From the NCBI GenBank assembly GCA_964356375.1, contig CAYHGT010000003.1, positions 554 to 64,553 of the forward strand: a DNA stretch of 64,000 nt, in the 5' to 3' direction. The position numbers were made by a program, and so were the translations under genes. Source of the DNA: an uncultured Candidatus Saccharibacteria bacterium (GTDB lineage: Bacteria; Patescibacteriota; Minisyncoccia; UBA6257; GWB1-50-10). The notes beneath the pieces were generated by a model, which was given only the letters and a program-made list of their open reading frames with translations, was not told the DNA's origin and ran no database searches. This document shows, piece after piece, positions 2,863-63,000 of this stretch (position 1 is its first letter; each line of letters starts with the position of its first letter).

Positions 2863-2867
2863 TTGTT

Positions 2868-3320
2868 ATGATTCTTAAAAGTTCGTCTGCGTTAGAAACT
2901 AAAACGTTGGCCTCAACACTTGTTGCGAAAATTCTTCGCGCACCAAACAAAAAACACAAAGCATTCATCATAAAACTGACTGGTGAGCTTGGTGCAGGCA
3001 AGACCACATTCGCCCAAGGATTTGCAAAAGCACTTGGTGTCGCGCACCACATTACAAGCCCAACGTTTGTGATAATGCGCAGATACGCACTAAAGAAAAA
3101 TAAGAGGTATGAAAATTTGTACCATGTAGATGCGTACAGAATGAAGCAACTAAAAGAAATGCATCCGTTGAATATTAAGGAGATCCTCATAAATCCAAAA
3201 AATATTGTACTTATTGAATGGGCAAAAAATATTGAGGGCTCGCTTTTGCGCGGTGTCTCATCAATCAAGTTCGCACACGGGAAAAAAGAAAACGAGCGCA
3301 TTATTTCTACTACCCTATGA
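2868..3320 (+). CDS. tsaE: tRNA t6A37 threonylcarbamoyladenosine biosynthesis ATPase TsaE (YjeE)
   Basis: LTGELGAGKTTFAQG P-loop followed by SPTF motif; 150 aa. Confidence 0.8.
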   Translation: MILKSSSALETKTLASTLVAKILRAPNKKHKAFIIKLTGELGAGKTTFAQGFAKALGVAHHITSPTFVIMRRYALKKNKRYENLYHVDAYRMKQLKEMHPLNIKEILINPKNIVLIEWAKNIEGSLLRGVSSIKFAHGKKENERIISTTL

Positions 3321-23594: not shown

Positions 23595-25838
23595 TTATGT
23601 AATTATTTTTGGTCCTTGCGCATTCCGTTCAGCGTCTTCTTTCGCCCTGCGCGCGCGTTCTTCTTCTCTTGATTGCGCAGCCGCCTTAGCGCGAATATTC
23701 GCGATCGGGGTGTTTTCGGTGAATCCCTCAGTAATAATCGGACTTGTAGTTTTTTCTTTTGGAGTATTTGGTTGTTTTTTATTCTCTTTTTCTTTTTTCT
23801 CAGCTTCCGCGATTTCTTTTTTCGCGTCATTCCAAAGATCCGTGATTTTTTCTAGCGGGTTTTCAGAGAACCACCCGTCGTTCTTAGCATTCCTTGCCGC
23901 AATAGTAGCTTCCACAAGGTCTTTTGCGCGCTCCTCCCACTGCGCTTTTGTTTTTGGTTTCTGCCCCTCTATTTTCTGCCACTTCGCGGTCTGCTCCTTT
24001 GCGGCAGTAATTTTTGAATCCAAATCATGTTTCATTCCGGGCGCGGGTATATATGCTTTGTTTTTAATATCCTCGTCTTTCTTTGCGGTCATAGCCACAA
24101 GCTGTTTCTCCCATTCCGTTCTTGCTGGTGATGCTTCTGCCGAAGTCTTTCTCATCTTAGAGAGTTCTTTGTATGTAGCGTCTCGTTGCGCCTCAAAGAA
24201 CGAGGTCTTGAGACCTTTTGCGAGGAGCATTTCGCGTTTCAACTCAAACTCCTCAGCTTGTTTCATAAGACCCTCTTCGGTTTCCGGAAGTTTTGTTTTC
24301 TTTCTCATCTCGTCCTCCAATTTCTCAATATTTTTCTTCATGTCGCTTACATCAACGCCAGCCTTCTCAAGCTCTTCCAGTTTCTTAAGCTTCTTCTCAT
24401 GGTTTTTCTCATCTTCTTCTAACGATGTTGTTTCTTTCGCTTTCTTCGCTTCGCTAATCTTGGTTTCTACACCCTTTTCTCCGCCCGTAAGTACTGCCCA
24501 CGCGAGAGAGCCTAGCGAGTCCGGTTTCGTGGAGGCGCCATCCACCGTCTGGAGTCCTTGACCCGCAACACGTATCATGGCTTGTAGAGGTGCGCGCACT
24601 GGTGTCATTGCAAGCATTGCCGCCTTTCCAAACAGATTTTTTGGTTTGTACTCGCCCACCGTCTTTATACCCGTACCAAAACGAAGCGCTTGTCGCCCAA
24701 TTGCCCCCCCCACCCGAGATTGGGCAATTTTTTGACCAAATGTTTTTGCGCCCTTGCCTGCATAATTCTTCGCAATCGCGCCAAGTCCTTGAAGTCTATC
24801 AATACCCGCAGCTGCCGCGACGATGCCCATTTTTTGTGCAGCAATAAGTCCGCCAATCAAGATTCCGCTAAGAACAGTCATTTGTGAACCGATAACCATG
24901 ATGTTTTGCAATGCGCCCATTTTGAAAAACTCATTGGTCGTATTCACTTTACCAAGCGCCTCCGCGCTTCCAAGCGCAAGATAGAGAAAAAACATAAGTA
25001 TAGGGGCAAAGAATACCTGTTCCATGAACTTGCTCCACCATTTAGAGAACTTATCCGCCTGTCCTGGAATTACCCAAAAGAGCCACGTAATTGGCGCAAG
25101 GATGAGAAGAATGGAGAGCCACACAAACCGTACGAGAAGCATGATAGCAAAAATAAACATAATGATGGTAGCGATAAGATTAAATCCAGTGATAAAAAAG
25201 ATTTCCGCGATGGACGCCATAACCGCAGTTGAAAGACTCGTGCCCACACCGGCTTCATCCGCAGGATTTGGTGGTAAGGGGTCATTTCCACTATTTAACA
25301 TAAATTGTTGAGAATTAAATGCGCCCGCCAACTTGTTTACCACACCAAACATCCCCCCTTCGTTTATTTTGCTCATAAAGAAATTGGTGATTACATTGGA
25401 GAAATCAATAAATACCCCCCCAATAGCGAGGCTGAAGTTCACGAGGATTGCGGCTGCGATGAGTTTTGGAAGCAATTTTTTATACCCGTATTCTTCAGAG
25501 CCGACGATGGTGGCAAAAGCGATGATAATCATTGCGAGCACGAATCCAAGGTTCGCAAGGTCGCGCGTAATTGTCCAACCAACACCCACAAGCTGGTTTA
25601 CACCCGTGTTGGCAACTGTGGTATTGAGCGTCATCATAAATTCAACGAGCGCGCCCGCGAGCATAAACGCAAGTGAGATAAAGAAGTTATAGAGATAGAT
25701 AATAAATTTTGCGGAGTAGGATACTATATCAGCAAGCATCTGATCCGCGAATGCCGCGTGCGCAAATTGAGGCACAATAAGTCCCACGAGGATAAGCGCG
25801 CCGAGACCCGAAAGCATTTTTTTATTGCGTAGCTTCAT
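23595..25838 (-). CDS. Large polytopic membrane protein, VirB6/TrbL-like, with a lysine/glutamate-rich C-terminal tail
   Basis: Signal-like N-terminus, at least eight hydrophobic helices over about 400 aa, then a roughly 300-aa charged coiled-coil-like tail. The position within the T4SS-like gene block fits the enlarged VirB6 homologs of Gram-positive systems. Confidence 0.45.
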   Translation of the reverse strand: MKLRNKKMLSGLGALILVGLIVPQFAHAAFADQMLADIVSYSAKFIIYLYNFFISLAFMLAGALVEFMMTLNTTVANTGVNQLVGVGWTITRDLANLGFVLAMIIIAFATIVGSEEYGYKKLLPKLIAAAILVNFSLAIGGVFIDFSNVITNFFMSKINEGGMFGVVNKLAGAFNSQQFMLNSGNDPLPPNPADEAGVGTSLSTAVMASIAEIFFITGFNLIATIIMFIFAIMLLVRFVWLSILLILAPITWLFWVIPGQADKFSKWWSKFMEQVFFAPILMFFLYLALGSAEALGKVNTTNEFFKMGALQNIMVIGSQMTVLSGILIGGLIAAQKMGIVAAAAGIDRLQGLGAIAKNYAGKGAKTFGQKIAQSRVGGAIGRQALRFGTGIKTVGEYKPKNLFGKAAMLAMTPVRAPLQAMIRVAGQGLQTVDGASTKPDSLGSLAWAVLTGGEKGVETKISEAKKAKETTSLEEDEKNHEKKLKKLEELEKAGVDVSDMKKNIEKLEDEMRKKTKLPETEEGLMKQAEEFELKREMLLAKGLKTSFFEAQRDATYKELSKMRKTSAEASPARTEWEKQLVAMTAKKDEDIKNKAYIPAPGMKHDLDSKITAAKEQTAKWQKIEGQKPKTKAQWEERAKDLVEATIAARNAKNDGWFSENPLEKITDLWNDAKKEIAEAEKKEKENKKQPNTPKEKTTSPIITEGFTENTPIANIRAKAAAQSREEERARRAKEDAERNAQGPKIIT

Positions 25839-34555: not shown

Positions 34556-35605
34556 CTACAGTCCGAGTTTTACGGCTGCGGCCTGCGCGCCCGCGTAGCT
34601 CGTGCTAATCACAAGATTATCGTTAAGCCACGCATAGCTAAACGCGACATTCTTTGTTGAATATGAAATGTAGCGCGCAATAAATGTGCTTACTTTTCCA
34701 TCTTTCCAGCGCCCAGCGGTTCCCGGATTCGCAAGGAACATTGACGCAAATTCGTTGTTCGTTTCAAGTTTTTTAATCTCTGTTTGTGCGGTTACAACAT
34801 CCGCGCCCGATGCGAGTTTCAAAACCATACCCGGCCACGCGCCTGTTTTATCAACATAGGTAAAGAACGAGGCGTCTGGTTGGAATAACAACATCGTACT
34901 TGAGGTGAATACACTCGGCACAAAAAGAGGAGCAATCGCGGATAGCGCATATGTTTTTCCGACACTGTTTTTGAAGACAATTTCTTTCAGTAATGGTACG
35001 TCCACGGTGTTTGATTGGATTGCGCTTTTTACTGCATCAAGTGTTACGGACGCGAGCGTTGCTTCGGATATCGTATCGGCAGATGTTTTAAATAACGATG
35101 TATGCATCACGACAGTTTCAAACGGTGATTCGGTGATTGTGCTCGTTGCTTCTATGGGAAGTTCTGGGGGGGGTACCTCTTGATTCACAACGGGTGGTTG
35201 TTCTGTGACTGGCGCTATTACAGGAGCCACTGCAAAGAAGCGAGGGTATATGAAAAAGTAGCCGAGTGCAATAAGCGCACCAACACCAACGAGTACTGCG
35301 AGAAGCATGAACCAATTTGTTTTTGATTTTGGCATTTGCATTTCCGGAATAGCAGATGCGGGATTCGCGTTTCCAAAATCTGTTTGCGGTGGAATTACTG
35401 AAGACGGAGCCGGAATATTTCCGGTGGGATTATATGGCTTCGGTTCGCCACCGCCCGTTTCTTTTATTGAGGCAATGTCGGAAGACATTGTTCTCATTGC
35501 TACTTCTGCTATGGGCGTGTTTGCGAGCGGAACCTCGCCCTCGCCCGCTCCGATCACTGGGTTTTTTTCCGACCAATTTTGACCCGGGGTTTGAAAGTCT
35601 GTCAT
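34556..35605 (-). CDS. Hypothetical single-pass membrane protein with Pro-rich N-terminal region
   Basis: TM WFMLLAVLVGVGALIALGYFFIY; no catalytic motifs. Confidence 0.45.
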   Translation of the reverse strand: MTDFQTPGQNWSEKNPVIGAGEGEVPLANTPIAEVAMRTMSSDIASIKETGGGEPKPYNPTGNIPAPSSVIPPQTDFGNANPASAIPEMQMPKSKTNWFMLLAVLVGVGALIALGYFFIYPRFFAVAPVIAPVTEQPPVVNQEVPPPELPIEATSTITESPFETVVMHTSLFKTSADTISEATLASVTLDAVKSAIQSNTVDVPLLKEIVFKNSVGKTYALSAIAPLFVPSVFTSSTMLLFQPDASFFTYVDKTGAWPGMVLKLASGADVVTAQTEIKKLETNNEFASMFLANPGTAGRWKDGKVSTFIARYISYSTKNVAFSYAWLNDNLVISTSYAGAQAAAVKLGL

Positions 35606-35628
35606 TGCCTTTATTATACACTATCGTA

Positions 35629-39868: not shown

Positions 39869-40765
39869 ATGACCGATGTTGAGAAGTATTTTCACGAATA
39901 TCTGGATTATTTAGAGATTGAGAAGAATCGCTCGCTTAAAACGCGCGAGAACTACGCGCACTATTTGGAGGTTTTTCTAAAAGAAACGGGTGTGAAAAAA
40001 CCGAGCGATATCACGGACGCGGTGGTTCGTTCGTTCCGTATTACGCTCGCCCGACGCGAGATGAAAAAAATTACACAGAACTATTACGTAATCGCCCTCC
40101 GCAATTTTTTGAAATATTTAGTGCGACGCAGGATAAGGTCCTTGGCACCCGAGACCATAGAACTTCCGAAGGTTGCGCGTCGCGATATTGAGGTGCTGGA
40201 CTATAAGGAGCTTGAGCGCTTACTCGTGGCTCCCAAGGGCGACTCGCTTCGCGTGCTCCGCGACAGGGCTATACTTGAAGTTTTATTTTCCACGGGCCTC
40301 CGCGTTTCGGAAATCTGTAAACTTCCCCGCTATCTTGATTTAGCGCGCGGAGAAATGTCTGTGCGCGGGAAGGGTGAGAAGATTCGCGTGGTTTTCTTAT
40401 CCGATAGTTCAAAAACAGCCATAAAAGAATATTTAAAAAAACGGACCGATGCGGACGAGGCGCTTTTCATCGGTGTCGCAAAAAGCGGAAAACCGCTGGG
40501 AAAAATAGATTCACGCACAATTCAGCGTCTCGTAGATTCCTACGCACGAAAAGCAGGTATCGCAAAGCGCGTGCATCCCCACGAACTGCGCCACTCGTTT
40601 GCGACCGACCTCTTAATAAATGGTGCCGACCTCCGTTCTGTCCAAGAGCTTTTGGGCCACGCAAATATTTCTACCACGCAGGTTTACACGCATCTTACAA
40701 ATAAAGAGCTTCATGAGGTTCATGAAGCGTTCCACGGAAGGCGCAGGAAAAAAGATGACGAATAA
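39869..40765 (+). CDS. xerC: Tyrosine site-specific recombinase XerC/XerD family
   Basis: R...HxxR...Y catalytic pattern (HELRHSFATDLL, LLGHANISTTQVYTHL); 298 aa. Confidence 0.88.
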   Translation: MTDVEKYFHEYLDYLEIEKNRSLKTRENYAHYLEVFLKETGVKKPSDITDAVVRSFRITLARREMKKITQNYYVIALRNFLKYLVRRRIRSLAPETIELPKVARRDIEVLDYKELERLLVAPKGDSLRVLRDRAILEVLFSTGLRVSEICKLPRYLDLARGEMSVRGKGEKIRVVFLSDSSKTAIKEYLKKRTDADEALFIGVAKSGKPLGKIDSRTIQRLVDSYARKAGIAKRVHPHELRHSFATDLLINGADLRSVQELLGHANISTTQVYTHLTNKELHEVHEAFHGRRRKKDDE

Positions 40766-54750: not shown

Positions 54751-54960
54751 CGCCATTTCTTGGTAGTTGGTGTAGTTTTTGGTTTGGTGTACCTATATAC
54801 CACCATGTGGTTAGTACACCAAACATGTATTTTTATTCCTATTCAATAATTAATGATATGTTTCTTCAAATAATGTATAATAAATAAAAGTGATTGGGTG
54901 TGCAGTTTTGAAATTAAAAAAAAGATGAGCAATACATTTCTCTATCATATAAAGCCAAGC

Positions 54961-54970
54961 GGGGGGGGGG
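54961..54970. repeat. Homopolymeric G tract (G10) about 20 bp upstream of the pilin-LamG gene ATG
   Basis: A run of ten consecutive G at 54961-54970 in a genome otherwise devoid of long homopolymers. It lies in the promoter/5' leader of a surface-adhesin-type gene. Confidence 0.8.
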
Positions 54971-54989
54971 TATCCCCTCAAAAGCTCCC

Positions 54990-56312
54990 ATGCATGATAT
55001 GGCTTTCTTACGCACCTCTCCACATAGTTTCACGCATGCAAAAGGCTTCCCCCTTCGACTTTGCTCAGGGTTAACCCTTCGACAGTTCAATAAACTCACC
55101 ACAAGCAACGCTCAGGGTAAAACCCTAGAGAAGGGTTTTACCCTCGTAGAGCTCCTTATCGTCATAGGCATCCTCGCCATCCTCTCTGTGGCTGTCGTAG
55201 TAGTCCTAAACCCTGCAGAGCTCATCAAACAATCAAGAGATTCAAGTAGAATGTCTGACTTTGCAGCCATCTCTACCGCAATGAGCCTCTATACCATAGA
55301 TCAACCAGGAGGCTTCACAGGTTCTTCAAGCATAGTATATGTCTCTATCCCTGATACCTCAAACACATGTGCGAATCTAGGTCTCCCTACCCTCCCCACA
55401 GGATACTCCTATGCATGCTCCTCTACCTCCACATACAGGAAGGTAGATGGCACAGGCTGGATGCCTCTCTCCCTAAGTAGTATGGCAACAGGAGCTCCCT
55501 TCTCTGTCCTCCCCATTGACCCCGTAAATACCACCTCATCAGGCAACTACTATACATATACCCCGAGTGGTCAGAAATATGAGGTTGCTACCCCTTTTGA
55601 ATCAGCAAAATACAAGCTAGGAGGCTCTGCAGACAGAGCATCTATGGATGGAGGCATCTATACAGGTCTCTATGAATCAGGCTCCTCCCTCACGCTTGCC
55701 CCCATTGATTATGGAGACCCATCTCTAGTGGGATATTGGACATTCAATGAAGGAACGGGAACCAAGGTCTATGATTACTCGGGCCACAACGCGAGTGGGA
55801 CGTGGCAGGGAACCCTCGGTTCCCAATGGACGGGAGGCAAGGTGGGGGCATACGCGGGGAATTTTAATGGGACAGATAATAGTGTGGCTATTCAGTACAG
55901 AAATATTGGGGAAACTTTGACATATTCACTTTGGACAAATGTAGCTACTACATCAGTGCAGATAGTTTTTAGTTTTATGAACACAGCGCTTCGAATAAAT
56001 TCTGGTAATTTAGCGACGACATTTTTTCCAAATGTTACGGCAGGCACCACATATAGTGCAAATTATACGTTTACTATCGGAACCTGGTATCACATTGTGG
56101 TTACTCAAACCGGTTCTACTATCGCAACATATATCAATGGAACAAGCTTAGGAAGCCAAACTGTGCAGCCGGTTAGTACGGGAAGCACCTCAAATGCTAT
56201 TGGCTCTTACGCCAATGCGTCGTTTGCTAATGATATCATTGACGATGTCCGCATCTACAATCGCGCACTCTCCGCTTCCGAAATCCTCGCGCTCTACAAC
56301 GCCACGAAATAA
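54990..56312 (+). CDS. Type IV pilin-like protein (class III prepilin signal) fused to a C-terminal LamG / concanavalin-A-like lectin domain
   Basis: Prepilin peptidase site KG|FTLVELLIVIGILAILSVAVV with Glu+5. C-terminal ...GTWYHIVVTQ...DDVRIYNRALSASEILALYN is characteristic of LamG-type jelly-roll domains. The 47-aa leader implied by the 54990 ATG is atypically long, so the true start is uncertain. Confidence 0.65.
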   Translation: MHDMAFLRTSPHSFTHAKGFPLRLCSGLTLRQFNKLTTSNAQGKTLEKGFTLVELLIVIGILAILSVAVVVVLNPAELIKQSRDSSRMSDFAAISTAMSLYTIDQPGGFTGSSSIVYVSIPDTSNTCANLGLPTLPTGYSYACSSTSTYRKVDGTGWMPLSLSSMATGAPFSVLPIDPVNTTSSGNYYTYTPSGQKYEVATPFESAKYKLGGSADRASMDGGIYTGLYESGSSLTLAPIDYGDPSLVGYWTFNEGTGTKVYDYSGHNASGTWQGTLGSQWTGGKVGAYAGNFNGTDNSVAIQYRNIGETLTYSLWTNVATTSVQIVFSFMNTALRINSGNLATTFFPNVTAGTTYSANYTFTIGTWYHIVVTQTGSTIATYINGTSLGSQTVQPVSTGSTSNAIGSYANASFANDIIDDVRIYNRALSASEILALYNATK

Positions 56313-56367
56313 GACCGATTCTCTGCGGTGTTCGCCATTCTCGCATTCGAAATGTATAATTGGATAT

Positions 56368-57048
56368 ATGGCAAAAGCAGTAATTATTTACGGACCTCCG
56401 GGGTCGGGAAAGGGGACTCAAGCAGATTTGTTGGCAAGAAAATTTAATTTTATCCATCTTGATACGGGACGATATCTTGAGGGTCTTTTTCGTTCACCAA
56501 AAGCAAAGACGGATCCAACATTAAAACGCGAAAAGGCTAATTTTGATTCTGGAAGATTGTGTACGCCAGAATGGGTTTTGAAAATTACGCGAGAAGAAAC
56601 GGAGCGCATCGCAAAAGCGGGATATAATCTGGTTTTTAGTGGTTCGCCGCGCACACTCTTTGAGGCGTTTGGTGACAAAAAAACCAAAGGACTTTCGGAT
56701 ACGCTTATAAAGTCATTCGGAAAAAACAATGTGTCTGTGGTATTGCTTGAGGTGCGTGATGCAACATCCGTGAAACGCAATAGTCATCGCGTAGTGTGTT
56801 CGCAGTGCGGACTTCCAAAATTGGAAAGTGTAAAAATTCCGCACTGTCCGTTATGTGCGGGACCTATGCGCACGCGTTCTTTGGATAATCCCGAGATTAT
56901 AAAAGTACGCCTCAAGGAATACAGAGACCGAACCTATCCGATTGTGGCGCAAATGAAAAAGAAAGGATTTTCAATATCAAAAATTGATGGAGAGCCGTTG
57001 CCATACAAAGTTTCGGATAAAGTAGTGAAGGCATTAAAGCTTGGATAA
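56368..57048 (+). CDS. adk: Adenylate kinase (long form with zinc-ribbon LID)
   Basis: AVIIYGPPGSGKGTQA P-loop; LID domain CSQCG...CPLC. Start set at MAKAV (56368) rather than the overlapping upstream ATG of the track ORF. Confidence 0.88.
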   Translation: MAKAVIIYGPPGSGKGTQADLLARKFNFIHLDTGRYLEGLFRSPKAKTDPTLKREKANFDSGRLCTPEWVLKITREETERIAKAGYNLVFSGSPRTLFEAFGDKKTKGLSDTLIKSFGKNNVSVVLLEVRDATSVKRNSHRVVCSQCGLPKLESVKIPHCPLCAGPMRTRSLDNPEIIKVRLKEYRDRTYPIVAQMKKKGFSISKIDGEPLPYKVSDKVVKALKLG

Positions 57049-61882: not shown

Positions 61883-62764
61883 TTATGAACGGATTCTAAA
61901 CAAACCACTCTCATCCAATACAATACCATCAAATATAAGCAACGTGAGTTTCTCACTAACGATATGTGGCGGAAGTATAGTGAGTTCAATTATTTTGTCA
62001 ATTGTGAGTGGATCGGGGGATTCTAAAAGGCAACGCGCAATCGCAATTTCATTTTCATCCGTGAGTTCGGTGATACGCGCAACACTTTGTTCTTTTTGTG
62101 GCACATCACTCATCCCTAAGTCCTCCAAAATATCTAAGAAACCAGTGACTAAGCGCGCTCCATCACGAATAAGTCGGTGTGAACCTCGATAGTTTGTATG
62201 GTTCACATTGCCAGGGAAAATGAAGACCTCGCGCCCCTGCTCAACAGCATTGCGCGCGGTTGCAAGCGACCCAGAGCGCTCAGGTGCTTCTATAACTACT
62301 GTGGCGACAGAAAGTCCGCTCACGATTCTATTTCGTTCTAGAAACTGATTCGGATAAGAGGGCGTGCCGTCGGGATATTCCGAAATGATGCATCCACCGT
62401 TTTCCACAATAAGTTTTGCCAGGTGTTCGTGCTGTTTCGGATATACTGAATCAAGCCCATTTGCGAGTATTGCAATTGTCCTTCCTTTTCCCGCGAGCGC
62501 GCCCTCGTGAGCCGATCCATCAATGCCGAGCGCGAGTCCGCTTACGATAGTAAATCCTCGTTTTGCCAATTCTTTTGCGGTTTCATGTGCAATCGCCAAC
62601 CCTTCACGCGTTGCTTTACGCGTGCCTACGATAGAAATACAAATCTCGTCGCGCGCGGGCAACTCTCCGATGTAATGAAGTTGTTCAGGAAAACCAACCG
62701 TTTCTTTGAGAAGTGCGGGGTACTTATTATCATCCGACTGCAACATAAATATACGCGGTTCCAT
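61883..62764 (-). CDS. dprA: DNA-processing protein DprA (Smf)
   Basis: Rossmann-like DprA core (IVSGLALGIDGSAHEGAL...GRTIAILANGLD); 293 aa. Confidence 0.85.
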   Translation of the reverse strand: MEPRIFMLQSDDNKYPALLKETVGFPEQLHYIGELPARDEICISIVGTRKATREGLAIAHETAKELAKRGFTIVSGLALGIDGSAHEGALAGKGRTIAILANGLDSVYPKQHEHLAKLIVENGGCIISEYPDGTPSYPNQFLERNRIVSGLSVATVVIEAPERSGSLATARNAVEQGREVFIFPGNVNHTNYRGSHRLIRDGARLVTGFLDILEDLGMSDVPQKEQSVARITELTDENEIAIARCLLESPDPLTIDKIIELTILPPHIVSEKLTLLIFDGIVLDESGLFRIRS

Positions 62765-63000
62765 TATATATAACCTTGAATTACGAAACTCCTTTTCTGC
62801 TATTTTCCTTCTGTTTCGGCTACAGCCCTGCCTACCGGCAGGCAGGTTTGTGAAAATTCCTCACCAGATTCTGCTTGAATATGCCTCGGAATTTTTACTT
62901 CGCCTCGCCTGAAACAAGAAGAAAAATCATCGGAAGTGAGTTTTGTAAATCAAGGTGTGATAAAATAAGTATACACTACGATTTGTGTGCACACATTCCT

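Follow-up and report, generated by a model that had tools for sequence, protein, structure and literature searches.

The locus described here raises the question of whether a run of ten guanines in front of a pilin gene acts as a switch for the adhesin that the gene encodes. The run (G10, CGGGGGGGGGGT) occupies positions 54961-54970 on the plus strand of a 64,000-nucleotide stretch of contig CAYHGT010000003.1, from an ultrasmall, uncultured Candidatus Saccharibacteria bacterium of the Patescibacteria, and this whole stretch is referred to below as the window. The gene that follows starts at the ATG at position 54990, and its product is a fusion of a type IV prepilin with a LamG domain. The initial annotation of the window had placed the tract 20 bp upstream of this ATG and had read it, together with a palindrome in the leader codons, as a candidate phase-variation switch; the tract is indeed present, at a spacing of 19 nt. 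In our assessment G10 may be a contingency locus, a hypermutable homopolymeric tract within the transcribed 5' part of a Patescibacteria pilin-LamG adhesin gene, and we hold the chances for and against this reading to be about even.

The tract is non-random. It is the longest homopolymer of the 64-kb window, for which a first-order Markov model predicts 0.005 G/C runs of at least 10 and 0.03 of at least 9, so that an uninterrupted run as long as G10 is 200-fold unexpected. The only other G/C runs of at least 8 in the window are a C8 at 24704 and a G8 at 35166. These two shorter runs (24704-24711 and 35166-35173, with 0.17 expected) lie in frame within membrane or secreted open reading frames (ORFs) without Pfam matches on the minus strand, at 23595-25838 and 34556-35605, which adjoin a type IV secretion system (T4SS)-like cluster; the runs could be further mutable sites.

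In order to see how the tract behaves in relatives, we compared the DNA of twelve related pilin-LamG contigs, among them L001 (P0003), L042 (P0122), L002 (P0004) and L041 (P0098). A scan of genome contigs with the protein returned distant LamG proteins of other phyla only and no close relative. In the consensus assemblies, which are of low coverage, the tract is G10 in the window and in L042 and G9 in L001, L002 and L041. L001 and L042 come from one aquifer well (Hainich H52), their 531 nt of shared upstream DNA is 99.4 % identical, and between these near-identical flanks the tract differs by one residue, so that the comparison proposed by the initial annotation found the relatives not all alike. 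The window is 97-99 % identical to L001 and L042 from position 54956 on, that is from 5 nt before the tract, and its DNA upstream of 54956 is unrelated to theirs. L002, at 57 % amino acid identity, keeps G9 followed by TACCCC, with DNA on either side of the tract that cannot be aligned with the window, including the stretch of 57-136 nt between tract and hairpin. The tract occurs with the same or a related 3' flank in four assemblies from at least three studies, and for this reason it is not itself a poly-G read artefact.

The examined Patescibacteria DNA, 126 kb in total, has four sites with a G/C run of at least 9, all of them 70-260 nt upstream of a pilin-LamG N-terminus; two of these four loci (L002 and L041) had been picked for a GGG motif in the predicted leader, and the unbiased ones are the window and L001/L042. 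A metagenome scan for the motif GGGGGGTAYCCCMTMAARAGM gave 24 matches. Because the matches beyond the L002 contig itself are all unrelated (coding regions, a marine element of ~80 nt and a 26-nt chance match in L039), this motif is not a dispersed element. The marine element is conserved around GGGGGGTACCCCCTAAAAAGAATTCTTTATTTTTTACTATTCAGG in metagenome contigs L017-L022, L025 and L037, shows G6-G8 variation and is unrelated to pilins.

The consequences of a change in tract length depend on the following features of the 5' region.

54853-54881, plus strand: promoter-like site ATGATA-17-TATAAT (10/12 matches), with a predicted transcription start near 54888.
54925-55074, plus strand: upstream ORF opened by the first AUG of the predicted transcript, with A8 before it; it crosses the G tract, with TAA 55072-55074 as its stop at G10.
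54961-54970, plus strand: G10 homopolymeric tract, candidate slipped-strand switch, from the run search, the Markov model and the relatives.
54971-54977, plus strand: TATCCCC, the C-run partner of the tract (G4-TAT-C4 mini-palindrome), with TACCCC at the same place in L002.
54990-55001, plus strand: ATGCATGATATG, holding the in-frame pilin starts 54990 and 54999, interleaved with TGA 54995-54997.

A TATAAT or TATACT box is also found ~80 nt 5' of the G tract in L001/L042 and L002, and in the window, L001/L042 and L002 an ATG lying 36-54 nt before the tract opens an ORF that crosses it. Between the tract and ATG 54990 no consensus promoter was found, nor does either ATG 54990 or ATG 54999 have a leaderless promoter in front. 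Among the gene starts of the window Shine-Dalgarno sites are almost absent, and at many starts a TATAAT-like box precedes the ATG by 6-15 nt (for example 56353-56370 and 35606-35625), which suggests widespread leaderless or very short-leader mRNAs and would favour the 5'-proximal AUG. Since there is no acceptable promoter between the tract and the pilin ATGs in an organism without Shine-Dalgarno sites, we infer that the 5'-proximal AUG at 54925 is used and that tract length modulates translation of the pilin. Transcription would begin at the TATAAT promoter near 54881, ribosomes would start at AUG 54925, and on crossing the tract their reading frame would be set by its length. With G8 or G11 the upstream ORF is fused to the pilin ORF in the window, L001 and L042, and ribosomes would run into the prepilin frame (ON). 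With G9 or G12 it stops at TGA 54995-54997, between both pilin ATGs (ATGcaTGAtATG), and termination there, one base short of AUG 54999 and five past AUG 54990, could lead to coupled re-initiation (ON). With G10, the assembled state of the window and L042, the upstream frame runs past both pilin ATGs out of frame to TAA 55072-55074, and pilin synthesis would be lowered or abolished (OFF). Replication slippage, at a presumed rate, would flip cells between these states.

In two relatives the tract has a more direct placement. The only in-frame ATG, GTG or TTG for the prepilin of L002 lies upstream of its tract, and the in-frame length is G9, so that by its sequence a change of one residue in either direction would truncate the protein, as in the classical arrangement. 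The tract of L041 (46 % amino acid identity) abuts a perfect TATAAT and forms the 3' half of an 18-nt spacer in TTGTCT-18-TATAAT, the only promoter-like site in that region, with the ATG of a short-leader pilin-LamG prepilin ~20 nt downstream. By sequence logic the length of the tract would be critical at both of these placements, within the only ORF and within a promoter spacer, and the window tract precedes two in-frame ATGs. In other respects the window locus resembles known contingency loci in the length of its run, in the length difference between close relatives, and in a surface product with a prepilin and a lectin-like LamG domain. Of the phase-variation proposal, the length difference between L001 and L042, the retention of the tract in L002 and its critical placement in L002 and L041 speak in favour; the tract of the window itself lies in an upstream ORF outside the annotated coding sequence, where its effect on expression is putative.

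The identity of the gene was borne out, as ORF 54990-56312 matches N_methyl and Laminin_G_3 in Pfam. It belongs to a family of pilin-LamG fusions with more than 1,700 homologues, mostly from Patescibacteria, the named ones being Paceibacterota and Wolfebacteria. Its protein-coding features are as follows.

55128-55196, plus strand: prepilin cleavage and methylation motif, with Gly-1 at 55134-36, Phe+1 at 55137-39 and Glu+5 at 55149-51, then a hydrophobic helix.
55137-56312, plus strand: mature pilin-LamG protein, with Laminin_G_3 at 55866-56285.
55802-56237, plus strand: variable LamG cassette, compared with L001 3885-4398 and L042 1364-1754.

The motif KG/FTLVELLIVIGILAILSVAVVVVL (the slash marks the cleavage position) matches PF07963 at E = 7.5e-7 and TIGR02532 at E = 3.3e-6, and Laminin_G_3 (PF13385) scores 66.8 bits against a cut-off of 27.6 over residues 293-432. 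The features expected of a type IV prepilin, namely G/A/S-1, F+1, E+5 and a hydrophobic segment of ~20 residues, are all present; a short basic leader of <30 residues is not. In the three strain variants the N-terminal ~280 residues are 92-100 % identical, the LamG domains 17-43 % and the last ~20 residues 76-86 %, and the LamG domain behaves like a swapped cassette, which fits the surface adhesin target assumed at the outset. Such an adhesin, with a LamG cassette that varies between strains, is what contingency loci typically control. No silent LamG cassette or second gene copy is present in the window. A PilB/PilT-type ATPase (T2SSE) is encoded at 97-1335, and Peptidase_A24 was not detected among the ORFs scanned in the window.

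The leader of this prepilin is unusually long, as had been remarked for a predicted length of 47 residues. To Gly-1 it measures 49 residues from ATG 54990 and 46 from ATG 54999, and there is no in-frame ATG, GTG or TTG between 54999 and the GFTL codons. Leaders of 120 homologues have a median length of 10 residues, and 18 of the 120 have at least 25. The excess is explained by an in-frame insert behind an ordinary-looking leader, and this insert also holds the 5' arm of a hairpin.

54990-55046, plus strand: ordinary-looking prepilin leader MHDMAFLRTSPHSFTHAKG, 19 residues (16 from the second ATG), like homologue leaders such as MLSSHSSFSPCHSEKSKG/FTL.
55047-55133, plus strand: in-frame leader insert of 29 codons, which with the Gly-1 codon 55134-55136 makes 30 extra codons.
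55110-55152, plus strand: hairpin or palindrome, GCTC + AGGGTAAAACCCT / AGAGA / AGGGTTTTACCCT + CGTA + GAGC.

The insert contains a first pseudo-cleavage site TTCCCCCTT (FPL), a second GGGTTAACCCTT (GLTL) and two CCCTTCGAC...GCTCAGGGTWAA units. After MHDMAFLRTSPHSFTHAKG the order is TTCCCCCTT with FPL (a degenerate FTL), CGAC-TTT-GCTCAGGG, GGGTTAACCCTT with GLTL, CGACAG...GCTCAGGGTAAAACC and the real KG/FTLVELL; the pseudo-sites are without Glu+5. The direct repeat CCCTTCGAC, reported to occur twice within 30 bp, was found at 55051 and 55075. Alone it is not above chance, and it falls within longer repeats, namely GCTCAGGGTWAAMCC, present twice against 0.29 expected, and a 17-nt unit that also occurs twice. 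A dispersed origin of the CCCTTCGAC/GCTCAGGGTAAA units in this genome, as a miniature inverted-repeat transposable element (MITE) or a repetitive extragenic palindrome (REP), was rejected, as the units occur solely in the pilin leader.

A pseudo-FTL copy followed by an insert is found in 11 of the 18 homologues with a leader of at least 25 residues and in P0038 (23 residues), or ~12 of 120. The DNA of these long leaders shares a common anatomy, with a TATAAT box, an ATG, a short normal leader, a pseudo xFTL(IELLVV), an in-frame insert of small palindromic units and the real x/FTLIELL. Examples are given below.

L043: MNQRQ-SFTL-(RQAQGK SPKQAQGK PFKQAQGQ SKRN)-SFTLIELL.
L044: GFTLI-LRQAQDQVKDRR (insert)-SFTLIELL.
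L045: GFTLI-DPRLRGDDKRIQ (insert)-GFTLIELL.
L046 and L041: whole SFTLIELLVVT copies with hairpin spacers between them.

L041 has three tandem pilin-LamG genes (300-500, 2865-3000), the first with three successive SFTLIELLIVT-coding copies and hairpin spacers between them and the third with a CCCGCCTGCCGGCAGGCGGG palindrome inside its first FTLI copy. L001 carries at 3050-3127 a 78-nt in-frame palindromic insert (ATCCCGTTAGAGAC...GTCTCTAACGGGAT) exactly at the G/F junction of the first pseudo-site, which is absent from the window and L042. The frame stays open in all inserts seen. This fits a translated leader that is presumably discarded by prepilin peptidase, and for this reason the insert would be tolerated.

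The palindrome at the cleavage-site codons is real and longer than the 10-bp inverted repeat first described at about 55118-55144. Its arms, AGGGTAAAACCCT (55114-55126) and AGGGTTTTACCCT (55132-55144), are 13 bp long and 100 % complementary, with a 5-nt loop AGAGA, and four further pairs form between GCTC 55110-13 and GAGC 55149-52 across a 4-nt bulge (CGTA). Folded as RNA it reaches -25.8 kcal/mol (z = -5.7), a stability matched by 0 of 200 shuffles, and simulated sequences gave 0.0 perfect inverted repeats of at least 13. Nearly all other long palindromes in the window are flanked by A and T runs and are terminator-like; this hairpin lies within an ORF and has no T tail. A terminator or attenuator was rejected, as there are no terminator-like sites in 54500-55300 and the hairpin is followed by CGTAGAGCTCC, with no T run. 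With Rfam 15 (gathering thresholds, then E <=10) only four tRNAs were found in the window, and the best sub-threshold matches in 54700-55300 had E >=1.4.

The 3' arm codes for K-G/F-T-L of the prepilin site, and the 5' arm, which codes for AQGKT, reads in frame as the antisense of the (G)FTL..(E)L codons of the same gene, so that it pairs perfectly with the GFTL codons. Equivalent arms are found in L043 (1253-1297, TCAAAGTAAACGA against its own TCGTTTACTTTGA, 13 nt) and in L044 (1757-1808, GTAAAAGAC with flanking pairs against its own TCTTTTACGCTGATCGAGCTC, 9+ nt). These lengths were reached in 0 of 300 shuffles, and ten other pilin starts show nothing above chance. The RQAQGK and QSKR peptides in the predicted pilin leaders of L043 and L044 are in-frame antisense translations of FTL codons. 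RNAalifold across genes found no convincing covariation; each hairpin has its own register, so that an alignment is not meaningful, and complementarity was instead tested per gene against shuffles. Because the 3' arm of L002 has drifted at synonymous sites without compensation (5' arm TCAGGGTAAAACC unchanged, fold -12.9 kcal/mol, z = -1.95, not significant), the pairing is not universally maintained. Leader inserts of the same recurrent class are found in family members without a G tract. We conclude that the palindrome arose as an inverted copy of GFTL..EL codons of the same gene, within this class of in-frame inserts, and is not a second switch; its proposed part in the switch was not upheld. 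The hairpin could yet have a secondary role in translation pausing, mRNA stability or recombination.

Several points weigh against a switch at the tract. The three closest relatives fetched regardless of leader (P0005, P0007 and P0008) have short leaders and no G/C run of at least 7, and for this reason the tract is clade-specific and not family-wide. With coverage of only ~4x for L042 and ~13x for L001, a miscalled homopolymer could account for the difference between G9 and G10. The annotated coding sequence of the window, L001 and L042 does not include the tract, two in-frame ATGs come after it, and translation may ignore the tract by starting independently at 54990 or 54999. None of the three window-type sequences has a tract of the length that would fuse the two frames, and an ATG-initiated upstream ORF crossing the tract is statistically unsurprising. 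The transcription start and the rules of initiation in Patescibacteria are assumptions of the model. Lastly, the conserved TAYCCCC beside the tract suggests that the Gs could be one arm of a small fixed hairpin.

This last point leads to an alternative in which the tract is structural or regulatory but fixed, the G run and TAYCCCC forming a small GC hairpin or a palindrome bound by a protein in the 5' untranslated region, with G9 or G10 as noise or neutral variation and translation starting at 54990 or 54999. That the G run with TA(Y)CCCC is kept between the window type and L002, that both pilin ATGs come after the tract and that the assemblies differing in its length are of low coverage would all agree with this, and the fold of the full 5' region surpasses that of shuffles by only a small margin (z = -2.1). 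For a hairpin with CCCC, however, 4-5 Gs suffice, and an uninterrupted 9-10 is not required; a pure run as long as this is 200-fold rarer than expected and such runs are intrinsically unstable, so that keeping one requires selection, and there is no match to an Rfam family. The tract of L002 moreover lies within the only canonical prepilin ORF and that of L041 in a promoter spacer. We regard a fixed element as unlikely, if still worth serious thought. The tract could also mark where a pilin module of ~0.9 kb (54956 to ~55800) that recombines or moves horizontally between loci or strains has its edge, with the G run as a breakpoint or recombination hotspot, or it could lie at an assembly join across paralogous copies. 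The onset of near-identity to L001 and L042 5 nt before the tract, with unrelated DNA upstream, is as such an edge would leave it; L001 and L042 share an upstream RecO gene, the gene that follows the pilin differs among L001, L042 and the window (TyrRS, AspRS and adk being the three), an intergenic element shared elsewhere is only ~78 % identical and the LamG part is mosaic. One near-identical 0.9-kb 5' module with three downstream genes and two upstream contexts points to paralogues, rearrangement or assembly joins. Against the tract serving as a mere boundary, neither a second copy nor a silent cassette is present in the window, the recurrence of the tract in four assemblies, noted above, speaks against a read artefact, and we know of no mechanism in which the end of a module is a homopolymer. 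A module edge and a switch could coincide in one tract and are not exclusive, and as the explanation of the tract we think a module edge distinctly improbable.

The remaining alternative concerns the palindrome, whose 13-5-13 layout could be functional either as a tyrosine recombinase core (like lox, FRT or shufflon sites) that exchanges pilin bodies at the constant N-terminus or as a hairpin in the mRNA by which translation of the cleavage-site codons is paused or occluded. Inverted arms of 12-13 bp around a spacer of 5-7 bp resemble recombinase cores, the structure is perfect and very stable, and equivalent gene-specific hairpins exist in L043 and L044; the window further has a XerC/XerD-type integrase gene and the LamG cassette is strain-variable. 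No partner site exists in the 64-kb window, however, and no recombinase gene adjoins the pilin, the Xer-like gene being 14 kb off and housekeeping in appearance. The uncompensated drift of the L002 3' arm with its non-significant fold, the absence of the hairpin from most family members, its lack of terminator character and the lack of convincing covariation also speak against a function, which we consider very unlikely. A tyrosine recombinase core would have arms of 11-13 bp around a spacer of 6-8 bp; here the arms are present, but the spacer is 5 nt (7 if the arms are taken as 12), there is no second site, and the locus lies ~41 kb from dnaA and is not the terminus dif. The Xer-like gene itself (39869-40765, Phage_integrase with an N-terminal SAM-like domain) is probably housekeeping.

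A contingency tract at this place would resemble systems known from pathogens. In Neisseria pilC, a poly-G of ~9-13 in the signal-peptide-coding region of a pilus-associated adhesin brings about phase variation. Here the 5' end of the pilus adhesin gene likewise carries a G homopolymer, and a change of one residue would alter the frame of incoming ribosomes; L002, with the tract in its leader-coding ORF, comes closest. Unlike in pilC, the window tract is in an upstream ORF before two in-frame ATGs, so that an effect would act via the upstream frame or coupling and not by a simple frameshift, and the product is itself a prepilin and not a PilC/PilY1-type tip protein, in another phylum and without Shine-Dalgarno sites. 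Repeat switches in promoter spacers are known from N. meningitidis porA (poly-G) and opc (poly-C) and from H. influenzae hif (TA repeats). The G9 of L041, which lies within the 18 nt that separate TTGTCT from TATAAT directly ahead of a pilin-LamG gene, is of this kind, whereas a promoter-spacer model was rejected for the window, where no acceptable -35/-10 pair brackets the tract and the tract is followed not by TATAAT but by TATCCC, which lacks the -7 T. With the poly-G/C contingency genes of Campylobacter jejuni and Helicobacter pylori the locus shares G/C runs of at least 8 in an AT-rich small genome and an association with surface-structure genes; those are mostly intragenic and number dozens per genome, whereas the present 64 kb contain a single G10 and the two in-frame G/C8 runs. 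A constant pilin N-terminus with an exchangeable C-terminal part and a G-rich element upstream recalls Neisseria pilE/pilS and the shufflon and Piv systems, but no silent cassettes, inverted partner sites or invertase were found in the window. A G-quadruplex of the pilE type was rejected, as it needs four G runs and the single G10 has no further GGG runs adjacent. As a prepilin with a class III signal peptide for a PilD-type peptidase the protein is typical in its G/FTLVE, Glu+5 and hydrophobic helix, and atypical in a leader of 46-49 residues against the family median of 10, the excess being the 30-codon insert. A full-text literature search returned no paper linking the candidate phyla radiation (CPR) or Patescibacteria to homopolymeric-tract phase variation, and one CPR paper cites phase variation only for a 9-mer repeat gene. 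A poly-G adhesin switch, of a kind well known in pathogens and in the literature searched not reported for this phylum, is plausible on sequence grounds.

The pilin locus lies near oriC, and besides the PilB/PilT-type ATPase and T4SS-like cluster the window encodes DnaA/DnaN, DprA, a ComM-like protein, FtsH, Adk and Map. Between tRNA-Val and the pilin is a 222-residue ORF (53884-54552), within the DNA unrelated to L001/L042 that extends to ~54955. It was rejected as a recombinase, having only a sub-threshold N-terminal transposase/resolvase-type helix-turn-helix and no domain match in the C-terminal 170 residues. Next to tRNA-Val(TAC) is a tRNA-Ile with anticodon TAT (UAU) at 53504-53576; the UAU anticodon is an uncommon way for bacteria to read AUA. 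An intergenic element of ~200 nt (62760-62960, and 1885-2160 in L001, 78 % identity) holds the palindrome CCCTGCCTACCGGCAGGCAGG and has no Rfam match, and its L001 copy has an extra insert of ~78 nt. A palindrome similar to CCCTGCCTACCGGCAGGCAGG is found at 54648-54670, upstream of the pilin promoter.

For annotation, the locus shows that long CPR pilin 'leaders' are in-frame inserts with pseudo-cleavage sites and that the start chosen by a gene caller depends on tract length. Patescibacteria are thought to be host-attached, with type IV pili as the leading candidates for the structures that recognise the host. A bolder and rather doubtful extension is that the host-binding pili of these epibionts are under a contingency system of three layers, in which a poly-G switch would act through an upstream ORF frame without Shine-Dalgarno sites, the LamG domain would be swappable, and an undescribed pilin-specific process would repeatedly insert in-frame direct and inverted FTLIEL copies (the 'RQAQGK' antisense units) into the cleavable leader, making perfect hairpins, specific to each gene and placed at the cleavage-site codons, for regulation or recombination. 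If the G tract is a true switch, these reduced genomes would share a bet-hedging device with Neisseria and Campylobacter, placed on an adhesin whose LamG domain is exchanged between strains, and metagenomics would gain a marker of host-interaction dynamics that can be counted in reads.

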